A stretch of 64,000 nt of DNA from contig JBJLGL010000014.1 in assembly GCA_045564915.1 (NCBI GenBank), forward strand, positions 7,691-71,690. The letters are read 5' to 3'. Shown here piece by piece: positions 1 to 27,601 of the stretch. The DNA comes from Rhodospirillaceae bacterium. GTDB lineage: Bacteria > Pseudomonadota > Alphaproteobacteria > Rhodospirillales > Rhodospirillaceae. Both the position numbers and the translations under genes were made by a program. The notes under the pieces were generated by a model that was not told the DNA's origin, ran no database searches, and was given only the letters and a program-made list of their open reading frames with translations. Positions within the stretch are counted from its first letter, which is position 1, and the number at the start of each line of letters is the position of its first letter.

Positions 1-1544
1 CAAGTCGTTGTCTCGTTTAAACCCCGAGCCGCCAAAGCCCGTCTGATTCTCCTAACCCTGCGTTGCTGGGCTGAAAATGCTGGTTTTGCAATAGCGGGCC
101 TTGGCAAAGGCGTGGGGGGAATATCATCATATCCACGAATCCTTAGTACTTCTTCGAGAAGATCACTCTCCCCCTCCACATCGCGACGCCATGCAGGAAC
201 GGTTACCTGCCATGACTCAGCAGACTCCAATGCCACTGCGAAGCCGAGACGCTCCAGACAAACCTTGATTTCTTCTCGCTCGATATCAATCCCGCCAAGC
301 CTAGAAACCTTAGCGGGTCTGAACGAGACTTTTGGGAACGCAGTTGGCTCCGCTCCGCCTTGCGCTACATCAGAAGCTTCGCCACCGCATATTTCAATAA
401 TCATACGCGTTGCGATTTCAGCTCCCACAACCGCGGAGTTTATATCGACGCCACGTTCGAAGCAGTAACGGGCGTCTGAAACAATACCAAGAGACCTTCC
501 TGTAGTCGCAATATTTACTGTATCAAAAAGTGCAGACTCTAGAAAAACCTCCGTGGTTTCTTCGGTGCACCCTGAGAGAACGCCACCCATAATACCTGCA
601 ATAGCCAGGGCTTTGTCATTGTCTGCAATGACTAGCATGGAGTCTTTTAATTCATAGGTCGAACCATCAAGCGCTATGATTTTCTCCTTATTCTTGGCGA
701 GACGCGGCCCAACATCGCCGGATAACTTACTAGCGTCAAAAGTATGCAATGGTCGGCCCAAATCTACCGTTATGTATTGGGTGATATCGACAAGAGCTGA
801 CACTGGACGCAATCCGATCGCAGTGAGTCTATCTTTGAGCCAGCCTGGGCTCTCCTGGTTCTTCACTCCACGAATAGTTCGCCCAACAAAGTGAGGGCAA
901 AGATGCGCGTTGTCGCGATTCAAATTCATCGCAACCGTTCTGGAACTCTCAAATGCACCTTGGGTAGACGACTCATCGATTGGTTTCAGCATTCCAAGCC
1001 CTGCAGCAGCGAGGTCACGAGCAATACCTCGCACTCCAAGGGCATCCACTCTATTCGGGGTTAACGCGACATCAATCACCGGCTCAAGGGACAGCGCATC
1101 GACAGCTGAGGAGCCAGCTAAGGCGTCAGTGTCTAGTTCGATGATACCATCTTGATCATCACCAAGTTTCAGTTCTTGGGCAGAGCACATCATACCCCTA
1201 CTCTCAACGCCACGGATCTCTCCGGACTTCAGAACCGCCCCAGTCGACGGGATCATATCACCTGGCCTAGCAAGAATTCCTTTAAGTCCGGAACGGGCAT
1301 TCGGTGCGCCACAGACTACTTGAATCTCTTCTGATCCGATACTGATGCGGCAGACCTTAAGGCGGTCTGCATTAGGGTGCTTTTCAGCGCTTATAACCTC
1401 GGCAACAATAAATGGCGCTAGGGCCTTAGCTGGGTTATCTACACCTTCAACCTCCAGCCCAATTGCCGTCAATTTGTCAGTGATCTGTTCGAGATCTGCA
1501 TCTGTATCCAGGTGGTCCATGAGCCAGGATAAGGTAAACTTCAT
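1..1544 (-). CDS. pheT: phenylalanine--tRNA ligase beta subunit, N-terminal part (gene runs off the left edge)
   Basis: Absent from the ORF track because no stop lies in the window. Minus-strand ATG at 1544-1542 overlaps the pheS stop (ATGA). My translation starts [34 protein letters not shown]...[12 protein letters not shown], a typical PheT N-terminus. The + strand ORFs 112-1731 are antisense artefacts. Confidence 0.9.
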
Positions 1545-2617
1545 TGACTCAACCCCCCCACCAATGAAGGCGCATCAAATACAGAAAAACCGTAATGACG
1601 CAGCCAGCGGAGATCAGAATCAAAAAATGTTCTTAGGTCGGGTATGCCGTATTTCAGCATTGCTACACGTTCGACGCCCAGGCCAAAAGCAAATCCTTGA
1701 TACTCGTCTGGGTCCAGACCACAGGCCTTGATCACATTGGGGTGCACCATGCCGCAGCCAAGGATTTCTAGCCAGTCTGCACCAGTACCGATCTTGAATT
1801 CACCATCATTTCGCGAACACCCAATGTCCATTTCAGCAGAGGGCTCTGTGAATGGAAAATACGATGGACGAAAACGGAGAGGCGGGCTGTCTACTTCAAA
1901 GTAGGCGTTAGCAAACTCAATCAGACAACCTTTCAGATGACCCATGTGGCTGGTCTTATCTATAACCAGGCCTTCCACCTGATGAAACATTGGCGTGTGA
2001 GTGATGTCATAGTCACACCGATATGTTCGTCCAGGTGCTAGCACCCGAATAGGTGGCTTCTGCTCCTGCATAACCCTAACCTGTACTGGCGATGTATGCG
2101 TCCGCAGAAGGTAGCGTGTGCCGTCATCCAACGAAGGTAAGAAAAATGTATCGTGCATCTCGCGCGCTGGATGATCCGGTGGAAAATTGAGAGCCGTAAA
2201 ATTGTGAAAGTCATCCTCGATATCCGGTCCCTCAGCAACTTCAAATCCCATCGGGCCAAAAATGGCAATAATTTCTTCAATTGTCTGGCTTATCGGGTGC
2301 AGCGTACCCTGCGTTTCAGGGCGTATGGGTAAGGAGACATCAACCCTTTCATGCTTAAGCCGCTCCGTAATATCCTGATTCTCAAGTTCATTTTTGCGTT
2401 GGTCAATTAGACTTGAAATCTCGTCCTTAAGAAGATTCAGACCCTGACCTGCAACCTTCCGCTCTTCCGGAGCCATATTTCCGAGGCCCTTCATCAGTAA
2501 TGTAATACGCCCTTTCTTCCCAAGGGCAGTGACCCGGATAGTGTGGAGGTCGTCTAGATCCTTAGCACCAGAAACTTCTTCTAATAGATCATCGCGAAGT
2601 TGGGTGAGTTGTTCCAT
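1541..2617 (-). CDS. pheS: phenylalanine--tRNA ligase alpha subunit
   Basis: 358-aa ORF with class II aaRS motifs ([21 protein letters not shown]). Lies directly upstream of pheT. Confidence 0.95.
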
Positions 2618-2737
2618 AAGTGTGCCTCGATCTGAACTATTGTTAATCCATACCGGTTATGGCGGCAGGCCCTGCGGCAGCCTCCACCGAGACAATTCTC
2701 TTACGAGGTGGCTGGCGCCAATATAGCGCCAAAGGTC

Positions 2738-3094
2738 TTAGCCAAGTGCCGCTTCAGCCTGTTTGACCAGGCTCGCAAAGGTTTCAGGCTCACGCACAGC
2801 GATATCAGCGAGTACTTTACGATCCAAGCCAATGCCCGATTTCCGTAGCCCATCCATAAATCGAGAATAAGTCAACCCGTGCTCCCGGGCTCCCGCGTTA
2901 ATGCGTTGTATCCAGAGCGAACGGAAATTGCGCTTTCTTACGCGCCGGTCACGGTAGGCATACTGAAGACCTTTTTCGACTTTCTGCTTGGCTACTCGGA
3001 AATTCTTCGAATTGCGTCCCTGGTAACCTTTGGCCGCCAGGAGCACTTTCTTGTGGCGAGCATGAGTGGTGACACCCCTTTTTACACGTGACAT
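2738..3094 (-). CDS. rplT: 50S ribosomal protein L20
   Basis: 118 aa, [16 protein letters not shown]... Sits in the infC-rpmI-rplT context. Confidence 0.95.
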
Positions 3095-3106
3095 CTAAGG
3101 CCTCCG

Positions 3107-3310
3107 TTACGACGTGCCATAGGGCAGGAATTTTCTTATTATCTTGGCATCAGAATCAGCCAAAACAAAGGAGCCCCGCGCCTTGCGCTTCATTTTCTGA
3201 GTTTTTGACCCGAGACAGTGACGCTTATAGGCAAAGTTACCCTTAAGCTTGCCAGAGCCCGTCGTTCGGAAGCGCCGTTTCGTGGCACTTTTCGTCTTCA
3301 TTTTGGGCAT
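3107..3310 (-). CDS. rpmI: 50S ribosomal protein L35
   Basis: 67 aa, MPKMKTKSATKRRF..., basic protein between infC and rplT. Confidence 0.95.
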   Translation of the reverse strand: MPKMKTKSATKRRFRTTGSGKLKGNFAYKRHCLGSKTQKMKRKARGSFVLADSDAKIIRKFLPYGTS

Positions 3311-3512
3311 TTTTCATTCCTTATTCTCTAGTATTTCCAACGGATCGGCATGCCCAGGCTCTAAAATCGCCTCTCGCCGGACCGTCATTGGCCTATAAAA
3401 TAGGCAGTCCTCACAGTATTATCTGCAAAGGAAGCGGCGGTTTATACCGCTAGACTATTGAATTTGCAAGAAAGTAAACGGTTCGATAGCACTCCTTGGA
3501 GACCCTAAAGGG

Positions 3513-4013
3513 TTAACGTGGGGCTACCACCATCACCATTTGACGGCCCTCCATTTTGGCCTCTTGTTCCACTTTAGCAATTTCGCCGATATCCGACCTG
3601 ACCCTATTGAGCACGTCGACGCCCAACTCCTGATGAGCCATCTCACGACCACGAAACCTCAGTGTTACCTTGACTTTATCGCCGTCACCAAGAAATCGTC
3701 TCATGTTACGCATCTTAACATCATAGTCATGGCTATCGATATTAGGACGAAGCTTGATCTCCTTTACATCGATGACCTTTTGCTTTTTCTTTGCTTCATT
3801 CTTTTTTTTCTGTGCTTCATACTTGTACTTGCCGTAGTCAAGAATCTTACACACTGGAGGATCAGCATTGGGTGATATCTCCACAAGGTCTAAGCCCGCC
3901 TCATCGGCGTGCCCCATAGCTTCCTGGGCAGTAACGACGCCAATGTTTGCACCATCTGCTCCAATAAGACGTACCTGTGGAACATCAATTCCCTCGTTTA
4001 CAGCGCGGTCCAT
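3513..4013 (-). CDS. infC: translation initiation factor IF-3 (as given by the ORF track; the N-terminus is problematic, see findings)
   Basis: 166 aa with [14 protein letters not shown]...[26 protein letters not shown]. An in-frame TGA lies 8 codons upstream of the ATG. Confidence 0.9.
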
Positions 4014-4050
4014 CCTTGGACGGCGGCGTCGTGGTCATGGGTCTAGATAT
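3985..4050 (-). other. alternative-frame segment encoding an IF-3-like N-terminal tail, with its own SD and AUA start
   Basis: AAGGAG (4064-4059), 8-nt spacer, ATA 4050-4048, then TCT AGA CCC ATG ACC ACG ACG CCG CCG TCC AAG GAT GGA CCG CGC = (I/M)[15 protein letters not shown]. This frame ends at TGA 3987-3985. Confidence 0.6.
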
Positions 4051-4169
4051 TTAAGAGTCTCCTTTATTTCGTTTAAGAACTCGCTTTAATATAGAACTGA
4101 ATTTAGCCTCAATGCACCAGCCACGCGGTTAACGACATTAGGCTTAGGTCTAATATAATTTTACATCCT

Positions 4170-6125
4170 TCAAGAACCGGGTGGGGTAGCTTCTGAGTTG
4201 AGTGTATCGACTGCCTCTGTAAGGGCAAGTATTTCTTGGGTTTTGCCGCTTAAGCGCCGCAGGGCAACCGTTTGGGACTCTGCTTCTTTCTGACCTACAA
4301 CTGCTATCACTGGAACCTTGGCGTGAGAATGCTCGCGAACCTTGTAATTAATTTTTTCATTCCGCAGATCTGTCTCCACCCGAAGCCCACAGGACCGTAA
4401 TGAGTCCGCCACAAAAACAGCGTAAACATCAGCTTCCGACGTGATCGTCGCCACAACTACCTGTACAGGTGCAAGCCACAGCGGAAACTTGCCACTATAG
4501 TTTTCGATTAGGATTCCAATAAAGCGTTCCAAACTGCCAAGAATAGCGCGGTGCAGCATAACTGGGCGATGTTTCTCTCCATCCTGACCCACATAAACAG
4601 CATCGAGTCGTTCTGGCAAAACGAAATCGAGCTGAATGGTTCCGCACTGCCAGGTCCGACCAATCGCATCCTTAAGGTGAAACTCTAGCTTGGGTCCATA
4701 GAACGCTCCCTCACCGGGAATTATTGCATATTCCAGCTGCGCTGCTTTGACTGCAGCTTCAAGCGCTTCCTCAGCCTGGTCCCATGTGGAGTCTTCCCCA
4801 GCGCGCACCTCCGGCCTAGTGGCTAATTTGACCTCTAATTCGTCAAATCCGAGGTCTTTATATACGGACTGTAGCAGCGCGCAAAACTGTGTCGTCTCTT
4901 CTGTAACTTGGTCTTCCCGACAGAAGATATGTGCATCATCTTGGGTCATCTGCCTCACACGCATCAAGCCGTGAAGTGCTCCATGCGGTTCATTCCTGTG
5001 GCAGCATCCAAATTCTGCCATACGGATCGGCAGGTCGCGGTAACTGCGGATGTCATTCTTATAGATCTGCACATGTGCAGGACAGTTCATAGGCTTGATA
5101 GCCATCAAGCGGGCGTTCTTTGGCAAGACTGGTGCATCGTCATCAATACTTGGAATCTCATCTGGTACTACAAACATATTTTCTCTGAATTTTGACCAAT
5201 GCCCTGACTGCTCCCAGAAAGCCGAGTCAAGTAGCTGGGGAGTCTTGACCTCAACATATCCGGCATCATCTAAACGGCTACGGATATATTTTTCCAGAAC
5301 CAGCCAGATAGTGTAGCCTTTAGGGTGCCAGAAGACCGACCCCTGAGCCTGTTCTTGGAGATGAAATAGGTCCATTTCACGGCCCAACTTTCGATGATCT
5401 CGCTTTTCTGCCTCCTCAAGCATTATAAGATAAGCTTTGAGTTGTTTAGCATCTGCCCAACACGTGCCATATATTCGCTGCAGCATCTCATTTCGATGAT
5501 CGCCACGCCAATATGCACCAGCTAGCTTCATAAGCTTAAATGCATGCCCCAGTTTGCCTGTCGACGGCAAATGAGGTCCACGGCACAAGTCTAGCCATGC
5601 CCCCTGTCTATAAATTCCAACCTCTTCATCCGCAGGAAGATCTTCAATTATTTTTGCTTTGTATTTCTCACCTGCATCATTGAAATAAGCTAAGGCCTTA
5701 TCGCGTTCCCATACTTCTCTATCAATTTGCTCGTCGCGATCTACAATCACCCTCATCCGCTTCTCGATTTCTTCTAAATCACCAGGCGTAAAAGGTTCAG
5801 ACCGAGCAAAGTCGTAAAAGAAGCCGTTTTCGATGACAGGCCCAATAGTGACCTGGGTTTCTGGGTATAGTTCTTGAACAGCCTCTGCCATAACATGAGC
5901 AGCATCATGTCTCAGCAATTCCAGGGCTATTGAGTCCTTGGCAGTGATTATTGCGACATTCGAATCATGGGAAATGACAGTTTTGAGATCTCGCATTTCA
6001 CCATTAAGATTTATAGCCAGTGCGGCTTTAGCTAAGCCCGGACCAATGTCAGCAGCCAGTGCTGTGCCTGTTACAGGGTCTGCAAATTCACGCACACTGC
6101 CGTCTGGCAGGGTGATGGCAACCAT
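4170..6125 (-). CDS. thrS: threonine--tRNA ligase
   Basis: 651 aa with a TGS-like N-terminus, class II core and anticodon-binding C-terminus. Sits upstream of infC, as in many bacteria. Confidence 0.95.
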
Positions 6126-6189
6126 GGGATTCCCTTTTCATACTCAAGGACGACGAAGCGCGGGCAATCTAAGAAGATAGCCAAACAAG

Positions 6190-7158
6190 TCAAGTTATTG
6201 TCTTTTTATTTAGGGCCTGGACTACTTCAGCAACCGCAATTGAAGCGAGAGTATGCCGGCGTAGTATGGTCACATCTGGCCCGCGATGGCCACTCAGGGC
6301 CGCATCAGACCCCGGGTCATAAAGAACAACACTTCTGCATCCAGCTGCAGCTAATAGGTGCATAAAGCTATTGTCGGCCCCAATGGCACAAGACGCAGCC
6401 CAAGCTAGAAAAACAAGCTCTATGTAGGAGGCTTGGCCGCATAAATTGATAGTTTCAGGAACAACCCCAACAACAGCTTCGGTAATATCTTGAGCCTTTT
6501 TTTCCCCAATTAACACCGGACGTTCGCCCCTAGCCGACGAAACTGCTGCCATTTCGGCATAGTGACTTGGAGTCCACTGGACGCCATTTACTCCTCCCGG
6601 GTCGAGGGCAAACAGAATGAATGGCTCGCTGAGAGAAAGTGGCAGCGAGAAAGTGCCAACTGAACGTGACACCCATGCTAAGCTTGCGGGGGGATGCTCG
6701 CTTATTCCAGCAACCCCAATTTGGGTCATGAGACTATCACTACAGTGCGCTGTTGATTGGTCAGAATTTGTATAGAAATAAGAACACCCCTTTGCATGAC
6801 CACACCAAGGGATTGGCTGTTCGAAGCCCAGCCTTTGCCTCCACGTTTTAGCTAGAGTAAATACCTGTTTCGTTCTTGTTGAAGTATCAAGATCATAAAC
6901 CCTGTCAAATGTTTGCCCGCGCACGAGTGAACACAACCCCAGAACTGAACCTGTGTCTGGGATTACCTCGTCAAAATAAGGGGCTACACGCGCAAAATCG
7001 ACCATAGCCTTACTGCATACCAGGGTAATTCCAGCACCATCATGATGCATACGAATTGCAGAAAAAGCGCGCAAGGCATATACGAATGACTCTAGCGACT
7101 TGGTTTGGATGACCAAGATCGATTGTTTCTCTTCATGTTTTAATTGGCTATTAATCAC
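6190..7158 (-). CDS. glycosyltransferase family 9 (heptosyltransferase-like)
   Basis: 322 aa. The C-terminal GADNSFMHLLAAAGCRSVVLY resembles the GT9 signature, and the N-terminal ILVIQTKSLESF resembles the GT9 start. Confidence 0.65.
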   Translation of the reverse strand: MINSQLKHEEKQSILVIQTKSLESFVYALRAFSAIRMHHDGAGITLVCSKAMVDFARVAPYFDEVIPDTGSVLGLCSLVRGQTFDRVYDLDTSTRTKQVFTLAKTWRQRLGFEQPIPWCGHAKGCSYFYTNSDQSTAHCSDSLMTQIGVAGISEHPPASLAWVSRSVGTFSLPLSLSEPFILFALDPGGVNGVQWTPSHYAEMAAVSSARGERPVLIGEKKAQDITEAVVGVVPETINLCGQASYIELVFLAWAASCAIGADNSFMHLLAAAGCRSVVLYDPGSDAALSGHRGPDVTILRRHTLASIAVAEVVQALNKKTIT

Positions 7159-7169
7159 GTCTCTTATAT

Positions 7170-8342
7170 TTATTTCCCGGATTGATAGATCATGCTTTCA
7201 TATATCTTGAGCGTTTTATCGGTCATGTTTTTTTTGCTAAAATGGTTGATGACATGTTCTCTCGCACGGTCCGCGAGATCCTCGCGCATGCCTTTTTTAA
7301 GGGTAGCAGCTCGCCTGATCGCACCAGCAAGTGATTTTGCATCTCCAGGCGTGAAAAGCCACCCAGTAACACCGGGCAACATGATTTCTTGAGCCGCACC
7401 ATGTGCTGGCGCCACCACAGGCCGCCCCATTGCTTGCGCCTCTGCAACAATGCGGCCAAATGCTTCTGGCCTGGTCGATGCTGAAATGACCACATCGGCA
7501 ACCATATATGCAGCAGCCATATCACGACAATCTTCAATGATTTGTATGTCTCCTCCAACACCATGAGATTCAATATATGACTCTAGACGTGACCTATATG
7601 CTGACCCTTCAGATGAAGGCCCCACCATAAGGCAGCGCCAACCCTCTGGCATACCGTTTGAGGATTTAAGAATTGAAAGGGCATCAGCAACAAGTGCGTG
7701 GCCCTTCCAACTTGCTAAACGGCCTGGCAGCATTACTATTGGACCACCATCTGGAAGCCGCCATTTCTTTGCCAGGTCTATAATGCGCGCTGGAGTTACT
7801 GACCTTGGATCGAATACTTCCGTATCAATCCCACGATAAATAGTTTGGATGATACTCTCATCGACCTCATATTCATTGGCGATATAGTTGGCAATAAAAT
7901 CTGAAACTGCAATAGTTGGTGTCCCCAAGGTCATAATGCGATTGTATGGCTTCTTAAGACCTAGCAGACCTCGGCTATACGTGCCGTGGAAAGTCGTGAT
8001 CAAGGGAAACTCTATAGAATTTTTTGCCCAGTGCGCACTCCAGGCTGGAGCCCGCGACCTAGCGTGTACAATATCGATTGATTGATTTGATATCAATTCA
8101 GCCAACTGCTTGCTATTTAGCCACATCCTTAATGGTGATTTTGTTGCGAGTGGCAAAACAAAATGTTCTGCGCCGGTCCGCTCCAACTCTCGCAACCGCG
8201 GGCCCCCTTCAGAAGCTACGAGTGCCCTCCAGCCTTCCCTAACGAGGGCTTGGGCCATATCAATGGTACCACGCTCAACACCGCCAGTACCAAGCGAAGG
8301 CAGAATTTGCAGGCAAGTCTTGATGATAGGTTTAGATGACAT
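7170..8342 (-). CDS. glycosyltransferase family 4 (GT-B, group 1)
   Basis: 390 aa with the EX7E-type motif EAFGRIVAEAQAMGRPVVA. Confidence 0.75.
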   Translation of the reverse strand: MSSKPIIKTCLQILPSLGTGGVERGTIDMAQALVREGWRALVASEGGPRLRELERTGAEHFVLPLATKSPLRMWLNSKQLAELISNQSIDIVHARSRAPAWSAHWAKNSIEFPLITTFHGTYSRGLLGLKKPYNRIMTLGTPTIAVSDFIANYIANEYEVDESIIQTIYRGIDTEVFDPRSVTPARIIDLAKKWRLPDGGPIVMLPGRLASWKGHALVADALSILKSSNGMPEGWRCLMVGPSSEGSAYRSRLESYIESHGVGGDIQIIEDCRDMAAAYMVADVVISASTRPEAFGRIVAEAQAMGRPVVAPAHGAAQEIMLPGVTGWLFTPGDAKSLAGAIRRAATLKKGMREDLADRAREHVINHFSKKNMTDKTLKIYESMIYQSGK

Positions 8343-8422
8343 ATTAATGCTAGTTTACGGTACTTGAGCGATCAAATCAGTATTAAGTATTACACTTTCT
8401 TACTTCGTTTGGAATTTTACCT

Positions 8423-9190
8423 TTGAAACCCAATGCCACCACTTTACAGCGTCCCGATGGAGCCGTAATCGCCTACGATAGAGTTGCGGGCAAGGCACCT
8501 GGTATTTTTTTCCTACACGGACTTAGATCGGACAGAAAAGGTTCTAAGGCTGCAGCTCTCATGGCCTACTGCCAGGAATCTAATCTGGCATTTCTATCGA
8601 TTGATATGTACGGACATGGAGAATCATCCGGAGACTTTCGCGACGGATGTATTAGCCAATGGACCGATGATGCAGTAGCAGCTATCGATCATCTAACAGA
8701 AGGGCCACAGATTCTGGTTGGCTCCAGCATGGGAGGTTGGGTGATGTTGCGTGCAGCCCTTGCCCGGCCACACCGTGTTAGTGGACTGGTTGGAATTGCA
8801 GCCGCGCCAGATTTTACCGAAGACCTTATCTGGAATGCCTTGAGCAAAGAAGAACAAAATGAAATGAAGAAAGACGGTTTTCTTGAGCAACCAAGCGATT
8901 ATGATCAAGAGCCTTATTATATTTCATATGGCTTAATAGAGGACGGACGAGACTGTCTAGTAATGCACGACACAATACCTATTCATAGTCCGGTCCGTCT
9001 CTTACATGGCCAGAAAGATAATGATGTCCCTTTTTCAACGTCGCTTGCATTGGCAGAAATTATCACATCAAGCGATGTTGAAACGATTTTGATCAAGGAT
9101 GGTGATCACCGGCTCTCTCAACCAGATGATCTGTCTCGATTGGTTACCATAATTGAGCAGCTCCGTATGACTATTAGTGCCAGCTTATGA
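8423..9190 (+). CDS. alpha/beta-fold hydrolase
   Basis: 255 aa with nucleophile elbow GSSMGGW and a C-terminal DGDH. Confidence 0.7.
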   Translation: MKPNATTLQRPDGAVIAYDRVAGKAPGIFFLHGLRSDRKGSKAAALMAYCQESNLAFLSIDMYGHGESSGDFRDGCISQWTDDAVAAIDHLTEGPQILVGSSMGGWVMLRAALARPHRVSGLVGIAAAPDFTEDLIWNALSKEEQNEMKKDGFLEQPSDYDQEPYYISYGLIEDGRDCLVMHDTIPIHSPVRLLHGQKDNDVPFSTSLALAEIITSSDVETILIKDGDHRLSQPDDLSRLVTIIEQLRMTISASL

Positions 9191-9501
9191 CTTCTCCTGA
9201 CCCCAAAGTTAAAAATACCCTTGCTGTCTTAAACGACGCACTTGAACGGGATCCAATCGCTCTAACACAACTGTTGAACGCCCGGGTAGAATGCAACGAA
9301 AAACTTGCGAAACACCCAACTGTTCAGACGGGCCGATATGGCAATAAAGAAAAAATTGGGGTCCTCGGTCTGATTAATGGCATTCTGGGTTACAAGCAGG
9401 GGGGTATTGGTGCTGAAGGAGATGTTGACCCGAGAACTGGTCGGTTTGTTCGTATTCGGAGATTCATTCATGTAAAGAGTGGTTTGAATGTCCGTGCATA
9501 G
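9187..9501 (+). CDS. hypothetical protein
   Basis: 104-aa ORF. Its start overlaps the upstream stop (ATGA). I recognise no family. Confidence 0.4.
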   Translation: MTSPDPKVKNTLAVLNDALERDPIALTQLLNARVECNEKLAKHPTVQTGRYGNKEKIGVLGLINGILGYKQGGIGAEGDVDPRTGRFVRIRRFIHVKSGLNVRA

Positions 9502-10327
9502 TATGTGGCTTCAGCAACCATATGCAGCGCAGAAAATGAGCTGCGCCACTTGCATTGCTTTTCTTACCTCCAGCGTGCTCGCTGCACCGAGCGCTTTAGA
9601 CACAACGATCTATGCAGATAATCAGGAAGACACCTATTATCGATGCCTGCAAGCTGCTGACACCAACCCTGAAATCGGCCTAGAAATGGCGCGAAGGTGG
9701 ATTCGGTTAAAAGGAAGAGAACCTGCACAGCATTGTGAAGCATTATCATTAATGTCTCTTGGAGACGCCGAAGAAGCTGCTCTACGCATGCAGAGCCTGG
9801 CGTCCCAATCTGCGAGTAATCGATCTATCAGATCTGGACTATGGGCGCATGCTGGCCGCGCCTGGATGCAGGTCAATGACTATAGTCGCGCATTAAGCGC
9901 TTTCACATCCGCCTTAGTACTAGATGATCGAGATAGAGGGGTCTACATGGACCGGGCATTGTGCCACGCTGCACTCGATGACCTATGGTCAGCTATAGAC
10001 GATCTTAATAGAGTCATTGATAGCGACCCCGAGTCTTTAGATGCTCTGGTTCTGCGTGGTAGTGCATACCGCCGACTGAAGCTACCCGACCTAGCTTACG
10101 ATGACCTTAACCGTGTGCTTATGGGCGACCCAAATTATGTGGACGCTTTACTGGAGCTAGGTTTGTTGGCGGAGAATCAGGGGGAAAAAGAATCAGCACG
10201 AGCTGCGTGGATAAAGGTTCTAGAGCTAGAGCCAGAGTCTGCAGCCGGGAATGCCGTTAGGGAGCATATAGAGCGTATCGATTTGAATCTTGGCCTAATC
10301 GATAATAAGGAAAAGCCAAAACCCTAG
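9488..10327 (+). CDS. TPR-repeat protein, probably secreted (start may be the Met at 9536)
   Basis: 279 aa. A signal-like MSCATCIAFLTSSVLAAPSA is followed by repeated A/L/Y-rich 34-aa-type motifs. Confidence 0.6.
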   Translation: MSVHSMWLQQPYAAQKMSCATCIAFLTSSVLAAPSALDTTIYADNQEDTYYRCLQAADTNPEIGLEMARRWIRLKGREPAQHCEALSLMSLGDAEEAALRMQSLASQSASNRSIRSGLWAHAGRAWMQVNDYSRALSAFTSALVLDDRDRGVYMDRALCHAALDDLWSAIDDLNRVIDSDPESLDALVLRGSAYRRLKLPDLAYDDLNRVLMGDPNYVDALLELGLLAENQGEKESARAAWIKVLELEPESAAGNAVREHIERIDLNLGLIDNKEKPKP

Positions 10328-10992
10328 AAGTCTAGGTTAGCATAGATTGGAGCTGGGCTAATTCCCATCACTACATCTCCCAAAAGGGGTCTAAAACAAG
10401 GACGAGATTTAAGTCGCGCATACCATTCCTTGGCCAAGGGATGCTGCTCCCATGGGACATCGTTTGTGTAATCTATTAGAGAAATGTGCGCGCCAGCCGC
10501 TAGGTCAGCGACAGACAAGTTATCGCCTGCAAGCCACCTTCGGCGATCGGTCAGCCAGGCAATATATTCTAGGTGCGCATGGATGTTTTGACGCCCGGCA
10601 CGAATGGCCCTTGAGTCCGGCTCCTCACTCTTAGCTAACCTTTTAAAGAGCTTCTCTTTAGACAAGAACTCCGTCACTTCTGAGTTAAATTTGGATTCGA
10701 ACCAGTGCAGCAACCTTCTCGCTTCGGCGCGAGCTTTGCTGGTAGATCCAACTAAAGGCACCTCCGGATATACCTCTTCTAGGTATTCAACAATCGCATA
10801 CCCTCCTGAAATAACGACATTTTCCTCCTCGACGAGCACAGGCACCTCCCCCGCTGGGTTAAGGACCAAGAAGTGCTCCTGCCCCATCCAATATGGCTCG
10901 ATGCGTTCATCAGCTTCAAGGTGCTTCTCTTTCATTATTAATCTAATGATTCGTGACAATGTTGATATGGGGTGATGAACTAGCGTACGCAT
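10324..10992 (-). CDS. glutathione S-transferase family protein
   Basis: 222 aa with a thioredoxin-like N-domain (NPAGEVPVL) and a helical C-domain. Confidence 0.7.
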   Translation of the reverse strand: MRTLVHHPISTLSRIIRLIMKEKHLEADERIEPYWMGQEHFLVLNPAGEVPVLVEEENVVISGGYAIVEYLEEVYPEVPLVGSTSKARAEARRLLHWFESKFNSEVTEFLSKEKLFKRLAKSEEPDSRAIRAGRQNIHAHLEYIAWLTDRRRWLAGDNLSVADLAAGAHISLIDYTNDVPWEQHPLAKEWYARLKSRPCFRPLLGDVVMGISPAPIYANLDF

Positions 10993-11053
10993 AAAACTCT
11001 AATAGAACATTGCGGCTTTCTTCACCAGTAGAACTAGACTAATCCGCAGCTGC

Positions 11054-12700
11054 CTAAGTATGTTGCACCTTTAAGCCAAGAGCTGCGGATAATAGAGAGC
11101 GTGTATAAAGCTCTCGGGGCGCTTCAAATACTGCAGCAGCTCGGCCACTTTCCACTACCTGCCCCTCTTTCATGACGATAATGTCATCTGCCATAGCGCG
11201 GACCACGCGCAGATCATGGCTAATGAATATATAACCAAGATTAAACCGGTCTTGAAGTTCATGTAGAAGGTCAACAATTTGGGCCTGAACCGAGACATCG
11301 AGCGCGCTAGTGGGTTCATCCAGGACTATTAATTTTGGCTCTAAAACTAATGCACGCGCTATAGCGATTCTCTGACGCTGTCCTCCAGAAAACTCATGTG
11401 GATAACGATCCATAACATCAGGATCCAAACCCACATCGGCCAGCGCGCGCGACACATGCTCTCGCCTATGAGTTAGGTCACTTACTAGCCCATGCACAAT
11501 AAGACCCTCTTCGACAATTTGGCTTACTGACAACCTCGGACTCAAAGCACTGTATGGATCTTGAAAGACCATCTGCATGGATCTACGAAGAGGACGTACT
11601 TCTTTTGAGGCGTAGGCCTCTATATTGGTTCCTTGAAAACGAATAGTGCCTGAACTGCTAATTAAACGCAGCAGGGCTAGACCAAGAGTGGTCTTGCCAG
11701 ATCCACTCTCTCCCACTACACCAAGTGTTTTGCCAGCACTTAGAGAAAAAGTTACATCATCCACGGCCTTTATGTGACCAACCGTGCGTCGGACCAACCC
11801 TGTCTTGATGGGGAACCACACCTTCAAATGCTCCACCGAAATCAGATTTCCTTCTGCGCTCTTGTCTCGCAGGGCACCCAACTTTGGCTGGGCAGCTAAC
11901 AACTCTTGCGTATATGAATGCGCCGGCTTCTCGAAAACATCCCGGATAGAGCCTTCTTCTACTACCTTGCCAGCCTTCATCACACAGACCCGATTGGCAA
12001 TTCGTTGGACGATAGAAAGGTCGTGCGTGATGAATAGAATAGCCATCCCAAGCCGGCTCTGAAGCTCCTCAAGGATATCCAGAATTTGCGCTTGAATTGT
12101 AACATCCAGTGCCGTTGTAGGTTCATCCGCAATCAGAATATCCGGCTCTAATGCAAGAGCCATCGCAATCATAACTCTTTGGCGCTGACCCCCCGAAAGT
12201 TCATGAGGCAAAGCTCCCAACCTATTTTGTTCGCTTGATAGGCCAACCATATCGAGAAGCTCCAGAACACGCTTGCGTATCTGTCCAGCATCGAGGTTTC
12301 GGTGAATCTCTAGCACTTCCCCAATTTGCTTTTCGATTGATTGGAGCGGATTGAGAGAAGTCATAGGCTCCTGAAAGATAATTCCCACTTTATCACCGCG
12401 TATTTGTCGAAGATCTGTTTCGCATCCGCCAATGACTTGCTTATCACCCACCATTATTTTTCCGTTTGGAAATTTTGCTGAGGTAGGCAGTAACTGCAGC
12501 ACTGAAAGTGCTGTTACCGTCTTACCTGAACCGCTCTCTCCTACCAAGGCAAGTATTTCGCCCGCATGGAGATCAAACGAAACACCGTCTACAGCCAACG
12601 TTTCTGTCTGACTCTGCTGAAAATTGACTGATAGATTTTGCACCGAGAGAACCCGTTTGCGGTCGTGCTTAGATGCTATGGATTTTGTTGCCTCTATCAC
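11054..12700 (-). CDS. yejF: ABC transporter ATP-binding protein with duplicated ATPase (YejF-type)
   Basis: 548 aa with two Walker A motifs (GESGSGKT twice) and two LSGGQRQR signatures. Confidence 0.85.
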   Translation of the reverse strand: MIEATKSIASKHDRKRVLSVQNLSVNFQQSQTETLAVDGVSFDLHAGEILALVGESGSGKTVTALSVLQLLPTSAKFPNGKIMVGDKQVIGGCETDLRQIRGDKVGIIFQEPMTSLNPLQSIEKQIGEVLEIHRNLDAGQIRKRVLELLDMVGLSSEQNRLGALPHELSGGQRQRVMIAMALALEPDILIADEPTTALDVTIQAQILDILEELQSRLGMAILFITHDLSIVQRIANRVCVMKAGKVVEEGSIRDVFEKPAHSYTQELLAAQPKLGALRDKSAEGNLISVEHLKVWFPIKTGLVRRTVGHIKAVDDVTFSLSAGKTLGVVGESGSGKTTLGLALLRLISSSGTIRFQGTNIEAYASKEVRPLRRSMQMVFQDPYSALSPRLSVSQIVEEGLIVHGLVSDLTHRREHVSRALADVGLDPDVMDRYPHEFSGGQRQRIAIARALVLEPKLIVLDEPTSALDVSVQAQIVDLLHELQDRFNLGYIFISHDLRVVRAMADDIIVMKEGQVVESGRAAAVFEAPRELYTRSLLSAALGLKVQHT

Positions 12701-26577: not shown

Positions 26578-27024
26578 TCAGCTTTCCTCGGCAGAGACTT
26601 TTTCAGGTCTTGCCACTTCAGCTTCCTTCGCAGTCGCCTTTTTAGCAGTCGCCTTTTTAGCAGTCGCCTTTTTAGCAGTCGCCTTTTTGGCAGTCGCCTT
26701 TTTGGCAGTCGCCTCTGGCTTTTTGACAGGATCAATATCTGTAATTTGAATGACGGTCAAATCCTGCCGATGACCAGCTGTCCTTTTGTAGTCCTTGCGA
26801 CGTTTCTTCTTGAAGACAACAATCTTATCGCCGCGCGACTGTTCAACAATTCTGCCCTTAACACTGGCTCCGGCAACATTAGGTGTCCCAGCCTTGTCGC
26901 CCACCATGAGCACCTCATCAAAGGTAACGGATGCACCAGAAACTCCGGCAACTCGTTCGACGGTTATGACGTCATCCTTTGTTACGCGGTACTGTTTGCC
27001 GCCTGTCTTTATGACTGCGTACAT
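26578..27024 (-). CDS. rplU: 50S ribosomal protein L21 with a repetitive Ala/Lys/Thr C-terminal extension
   Basis: The canonical start [14 protein letters not shown] is at 27024; the track ORF extends to 27153. The C-terminus is KKPE(ATAKK)5[19 protein letters not shown]. Confidence 0.9.
26630..26716. repeat. 15-bp tandem repeat, about 6 units (gcagtcgccttttta/g), inside the rplU 3' end
   Basis: Units start at 26630, 26645, 26660, 26675, 26690 and 26705. The first five are near-identical, differing only by a/g. Confidence 0.9.
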
Positions 27025-27239
27025 GATCGACCTTCCGAGAAACGAAAACAGCGGGACCACGCCCGCTCGATTTGGCGGAAATATACGCACCCAACCCTCT
27101 GAGTCAACGGTTTGGGCTCTAATCTGCAGTATTCTTAGCGCTATACGTGCCAAATCCTGCCAAAAAAAGTAATTTAGCCTAATTGAAGCATAAAACAGCT
27201 TACTGTAGTGTCCCTCTCCCCTTCAATCGATGACCTTGC

Positions 27240-27329
27240 GGAGAGGTGCCGGAGTGGTCGAACGGGGCGGTCTCGAAAACCGTTGCGCGCGCGAGTGTGC
27301 CGTGGGTTCGAATCCCACCCTCTCCGCCA
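27240..27329 (+). tRNA. tRNA-Ser (anticodon CGA), canonical copy
   Basis: GGAGAGG acceptor stem, anticodon loop CUCGAAA, long variable arm GCGCGC-GCGA-GTGTGC, T arm GTGGG-TTCGAAT-CCCAC, discriminator G, encoded CCA. Confidence 0.9.
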
Positions 27330-27601
27330 TTTACCCGGAATAAGTTCTTTTTATCAATAGGTTATAATATGCCCTTGTCTGCATGGGCGCTAGCTTTGCC
27401 ACTGCCAGGCGTTTTGGTTTCCTTATAAATACAGGCGAAATGCAAGCGAAGCAGGTGAAGCAAGCGTATCCCATATGGGGGAGTTGGGACAGTGGTACAT
27501 CCAGCCGCAGCAGTTAGTGCAGGCGACGAAGAGAAATCATGTGATACAAATACCGGTGGCCGTTAGCATGTCGTAAACATTGGATTGTAGAAGGTGAGAC
27601 C

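Follow-up and report, generated by a model that had tools for sequence, protein, structure and literature searches.

The window analysed here, a stretch of 64,000 nucleotides on contig JBJLGL010000014.1 of a Rhodospirillaceae bacterium, carries on its minus strand the genes thrS, infC, rpmI, rplT and pheS (Table 1), and it is the second of these, which encodes translation initiation factor IF-3, that concerns us. In itself this is a normal infC, set in a classical thrS-infC-rpmI-rplT-pheS cluster, and it is the single infC of the assembly, which comprises 2.9 Mb in 15 contigs and is estimated to be 89.65% complete. In the deposited record, the gene is nonetheless divided between two reading frames, and the place where they part is a single base at position 4002.

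Table 1. Features of the infC locus and its neighbours in the window (coordinates on the forward strand; strand as indicated)
Feature	Position	Strand	Basis or remark
thrS, upstream neighbour of infC	4170..6125	-	TIGR00418, 687.3 bits
Shine-Dalgarno AAGGAG of infC	4059..4064	-	8 nt upstream of ATA
ATA, probable true infC start codon	4048..4050	-	adjoins TAA 4053-4051; ATA/ATC at homologous codon of relatives
infC codons 2-16, ATA frame	4003..4047	-	matching peptide in-frame with body in 29/29 relatives
out-of-frame ATG within codons AAG GAT GGA	4011..4013	-	AAGGATGGACC string also in intact-frame relatives, e.g. L003
extra base, T on minus strand	4002..4002	-	private to assembly; source of apparent frameshift
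infC remainder, ...APR and stop, IF3_N and IF3_C domains	3513..4001	-	TIGR00168, PF05198, PF00707
rpmI (L35), downstream neighbour of infC	3107..3310	-	TIGR00001, 69.3 bits
rplT (L20)	2738..3094	-	TIGR01032, 159.8 bits
pheS	1541..2617	-	TIGR00468, 337.7 bits

Read along the minus strand, the Shine-Dalgarno motif (4064-4059) is followed by an 8-nt spacer, ACTCTTAA, and then by ATA (4050-4048), which a TAA immediately precedes. The frame of this ATA encodes the conserved N-terminus of IF-3 and ends at TGA 3987-3985, forming an ORF of 21 codons. The long infC ORF lies in a different frame, where it runs from ATG 4013 to 3513 and specifies 166 aa, its upstream extension being blocked by an in-frame TGA at 4037-4035. 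The ATA frame and the body frame overlap across 4034-3988, and if CGC and the following T (4005-4002) are taken as one step, the frames are joined and a full-length IF-3 of 178 residues results. Without the extra base, the long ORF would not start at ATG 4013; AAGG abuts this ATG directly, and there is no spaced Shine-Dalgarno motif in front of it. Base 4002 lies outside any homopolymer run. A sequence-only reading of this DNA had given the same positions for the Shine-Dalgarno motif, the spacer, the ATA, both TGA codons and ATG 4013, all of which proved correct when we re-read the minus strand. It had further assigned the conserved N-terminus, the Shine-Dalgarno motif and the ATA start to infC, split from the body by one base at 4002, and had noted that dropping this T rejoins the N-terminus to the body; both statements are borne out here.

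The protein family is recognized with or without the N-terminal piece. The read-through protein scores 265.5 bits against the IF-3 equivalog TIGR00168 (cut-off 60), spanning profile positions 3-168 of 170, and the 166-aa ORF without that piece reaches 262.7 bits, covering positions 6-168 of 170. Both IF-3 domains are complete in the two forms, with PF05198 matched over profile positions 1-70 of 70 and PF00707 over 1-85 of 86; within the 166-aa ORF, IF3_N occupies residues 5-74 and IF3_C residues 81-165.

Comparison with related genomes speaks directly to the origin of the offset. Each of 40 related genomes has one infC, with open frames of 178-312 aa as against 173 aa in the window. We read the loci of 29 of these relatives (L002-L030), among them G017 (94% identity) and the same-genus G001 (90% identity), while the remaining eleven genomes were assessed by their reported open-frame length alone. 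In all 29 loci the N-terminal peptide starts (I)(A/P) and runs in-frame into the VNE... body. The peptide of the upstream frame in the window gives a local alignment score of 93 over 25 residues with its counterpart in G017 (BLOSUM62), and because of this score, and because the relatives carry the matching peptide in a single frame, the similarity of the upstream frame to IF-3 N-termini is, as judged from these alignments, not due to chance. When the 30 5' regions are aligned with MAFFT, one column is occupied solely by the window, which reads ccgcgcTGTAAAC where the closest relatives read ccgcgc-GTCAAC. Neither the frame offset nor the insertion at 4002 occurs in any of the 29 relatives' loci; the sister genomes have one base fewer at this point, the very pattern that the sequence-only reading had named as the mark of a plain indel error.

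Exact-pattern scans for the infC site, in which base 4002 was left optional, returned no match in the metagenome or genome contig collections. A scan with a shorter pattern returned a sole locus, L051, a public metagenome contig of 622 nt, which we rejected since it is an unrelated high-GC gene with 21 specified bases in common by chance.

The relatives also bear on another of the explanations put forward earlier, namely a programmed +1 ribosomal frameshift like that of prfB, by which ribosomes would pass from the ATA frame into that of the body at CGC-U-GUA. The overlap of the frames across 4034-3988 would accommodate such an event, a +1 step at 4002 yields a perfect IF-3, and the CGC codon is preceded, at a distance of 7 nt, by an SD-like AAGGA. 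The likeness to prfB, which encodes RF2, is one of formal geometry only, in that a short upstream frame precedes a body in the +1 frame. At a prfB-type site, the P site is occupied by a slippery codon and the A site by a stop or hungry codon, and an SD-like stimulator sits about 3 nt upstream, whereas the infC site, CCG CGC UGU AAA, has no slippery codon, CGC not being one, and no in-frame stop at the point of the shift; the next zero-frame codon is UGU, and the zero-frame stop (TGA 3987-3985) comes 15 nt further on. The AAGGA consists simply of the Lys-Asp-Gly codons, which are also found in intact-frame relatives, and its spacing is 7 nt rather than the 3 nt of prfB. Moreover, the offset is not conserved in a single one of the 29 relatives, the open frames of all 40 related genomes are long enough for the whole protein, and the extra base is missing from near-identical DNA in all four of the public sequencing runs described below. 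Given that the site lacks these features, that relatives do not share the offset and that the contigs of the population do not carry the base, we consider it extremely improbable that infC is read by programmed frameshifting, and this part of the earlier interpretation is best abandoned.

Public metagenome data allow the same question to be asked of DNA that is nearly identical to the window. Of 24 listed public runs, 20 contain the window stretch wholly or partly, and we aligned the Logan contigs of four marine metagenome runs from four studies (X1, X2, X6 and X7) to window positions 1-12000. As flagged possible sources of the window, X1 and X2 do not count as independent evidence; X6 and X7 carry no such flag. 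The contigs of the four runs are 99-100% identical to the window, and in each of them the sole indel across the 12,000 bases is one letter missing at 4002. The depth that shows this gap equals the full depth at the site (14.6, 8.4, 7.3 and 4.76 in the four runs). The X1 contig, at 14,609 nt the longest of those that cross the site, matches window 1-11408 with no substitutions and the one gap at 4002, and the site-crossing contigs of X2 (2,969 nt), X6 (1,630 nt) and X7 (1,057 nt) show the same gap and no other difference. A missing base near 4002, the mark of an indel error in the sequence-only reading, is thus seen in four of four public runs on contigs, which stand here in place of raw reads and which lose rare variants, so that a minority allele bearing the T could escape this comparison. 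The protein collections tell a similar story. No exact copy of the 166-aa protein encoded by the T-bearing ORF occurs among about 15 billion public proteins, while the 174-aa product that starts at ATG 4038 once the T is left out is present letter-for-letter in the same collection, on five contigs (Logan, ENA). The 90% cluster of this T-less product has 19 members, and all 15 of those listed are 173-174 aa long.

These data also weigh on a second alternative, in which the T is real in the binned strain or in a subpopulation of it, and the cell initiates or reinitiates at ATG 4013 and so makes an IF-3 that is short of the 16-residue N-terminal tail. Such a protein is conceivable, as the 166-aa ORF retains both complete domains and its score of 262.7 bits on TIGR00168. 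The C-terminal domain of IF-3 by itself supports growth of E. coli (PMC9723500), and a tail-less IF-3 could accordingly be tolerated. The compared assembly shows no other indel errors, and the absence of a minor allele cannot be shown from contigs. At the same time, the base is missing from the contigs of all four runs, including the two that are possible sources of the window, the insertion is found in none of the 29 relatives, and the exact product of the T-bearing ORF has no counterpart among public proteins. ATG 4013 is a poor candidate for initiation, with no spaced Shine-Dalgarno motif, and an essential gene would lose both its ATA start and its autoregulatory arrangement. We therefore regard a genuine mutation as unlikely, and we retain it at this level mainly because our evidence consists of contigs and not of raw reads. 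Less likely still is the specific version in which the T allele is real in the binned population, a tail-less IF-3 is made by reinitiation at ATG 4013 inside the 21-codon upstream ORF, and AUA-based autoregulation is lost. What can be kept of the earlier proposal of a mutation followed by reinitiation at ATG 4013 is that it is conceivable for a rare allele; as an account of the gene in this population, it finds no support in the contigs or in the proteins.

If the record were generally prone to indels, other genes should be broken in the same manner, and we searched the assembly accordingly. Translation of 400 kb of G017 gave 560 ORFs of at least 150 aa, which were compared with the window genome; 213 of them had a good match there, defined as at least 55% identity over at least 80 aa. 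None of the 213 was matched by colinear pieces in differing frames. Among 75 unaligned ends that we next checked for matches in the other frames, ten were flagged and nine of these were inspected; the one left aside, at the N end of L042_-_6423_7710, had a score of 35, which was too weak. Of the inspected ends, that of infC alone had an off-frame peptide that was meaningful and conserved (score 93). The other eight of the nine were rejected as frameshifts of the window genome, because in them a G017 ORF extends, in the wrong frame or antisense, into a neighbouring gene; one of these eight is an antisense G017 ORF across ilvC-ilvH, and ilvC and ilvH are both intact in the window genome.

Within the window itself, 69 ORF matches from G017 and G001 covering 29,957 bases revealed no other real frameshift. 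Two places where matches fell in several frames have simple explanations: that at 8014-9151 is due to an antisense ORF (8014-8352) of the gene at 7173-8354, and that at 26795-27333 to short matches at 27240-27333, which lie on or beside a tRNA-Ser gene. The latter is a tRNA-Ser(CGA) gene at 27240-27329, and its presence explains the short multi-frame protein matches. Elsewhere, in L042 (G017:C2:650001-670000), a minus-strand ORF (5478-6303, oriented) has 38 last residues that match the homologue in the window genome off-frame only. That off-frame stretch of the homologue (C11:241797-242495) contains stops, and its in-frame continuation is sensible, which suggests a frameshift or a divergent C-terminus in G017 rather than in the window genome.

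The extra base at 4002 is thus an isolated event, and a generally error-prone assembly is not to blame for it, since the 12 kb contain no second indel and the search for further broken genes found none. Overall, we believe that T 4002 is very probably an extra base confined to this one deposited assembly, a consensus or assembly error; a T-bearing minority allele would be at most a rare variant in the source sample. Without this base, infC would be an ordinary uninterrupted gene of 178 codons that would begin at ATA 4050, with AAGGAG 8 nt ahead of it, and there would be no need to assume recoding, reinitiation or pseudogenisation. An assembly indel was the first of the explanations offered from the sequence, and it is the one that both the 29 relatives and the contigs of the four runs, each with one base fewer, support. 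In this context, the case resembles the single-base indel errors of draft and metagenome-assembled genomes, in which a conserved essential gene is split by one inserted base that is private to the record and at odds with independent assemblies of that sequence. It differs from them in being isolated, with no further indels where the comparison was made, and in affecting a base that is not part of a homopolymer. For annotation, the consequence is that infC, a gene that is intact in the organism, will be called from this record as a pseudogene or a truncated protein of 166 aa.

Regardless of how the base entered the record, the intact form of the gene raises a point about its start codon. Among the 29 relatives, the codon homologous to ATA 4050 reads ATA in 22 cases and ATC in seven. 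In 8 of the 29 loci, this homologous ATA or ATC is the sole listed codon of the set ATG, GTG, TTG, CTG and ATH in the open frame before the Val that opens the conserved body, and in most of the 29 a GGAG-type motif stands at a similar distance upstream, as read from the alignment by eye and uncounted. ATA 4050 is therefore the probable true start codon of infC, and, as far as comparative sequence can tell, infC in this alphaproteobacterial group would appear to keep a non-AUG (AUA or AUC) start behind a strong Shine-Dalgarno motif, which is already a known point for the gene.

Such a start would fit the known autoregulation of infC by IF-3, by analogy with E. coli, and one source describes the AUU and AUC starts of infC as the target of this control (PMC5499595). 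The infC genes of the window and of E. coli are alike in belonging to the same protein family (TIGR00168, with IF3_N and IF3_C) and in lying in the same gene neighbourhood, and the non-AUG start of the AUH type behind a Shine-Dalgarno motif would probably be shared as well. They differ in that E. coli uses AUU where the window has a probable AUA start (and 7 of 29 relatives AUC), and in the Pro/Thr-rich N-terminal tail that the window protein bears. A closer parallel in the codon itself is Staphylococcus aureus, for which an AUA start of infC has been reported, likewise behind a strong Shine-Dalgarno motif (PMC13009471); S. aureus belongs to another phylum, however, and in the window organism the AUA start is predicted from sequence. 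A brief literature search for an AUA or ATA start of infC found no paper on alphaproteobacteria. Gene finders restricted to ATG, GTG and TTG would miscall the start of infC even in intact genomes, where they would pick an internal ATG (codon 5 or 6) if there is one, and another start codon if there is not.

The region downstream of infC offers one further observation. A spacer of about 200 nt (3311-3512, minus strand) separates the stop of infC from the start of rpmI and has no Rfam match at E values up to 1. An Rfam scan of window positions 2500-4500 at the same limit likewise detected no leader RNA, its sole match, to mir-132, being a chance one. In other bacteria, L20 regulates rpmI-rplT through a leader, and by analogy the 3311-3512 spacer could be the putative site of a promoter or leader for L20 control of rpmI-rplT in this organism.
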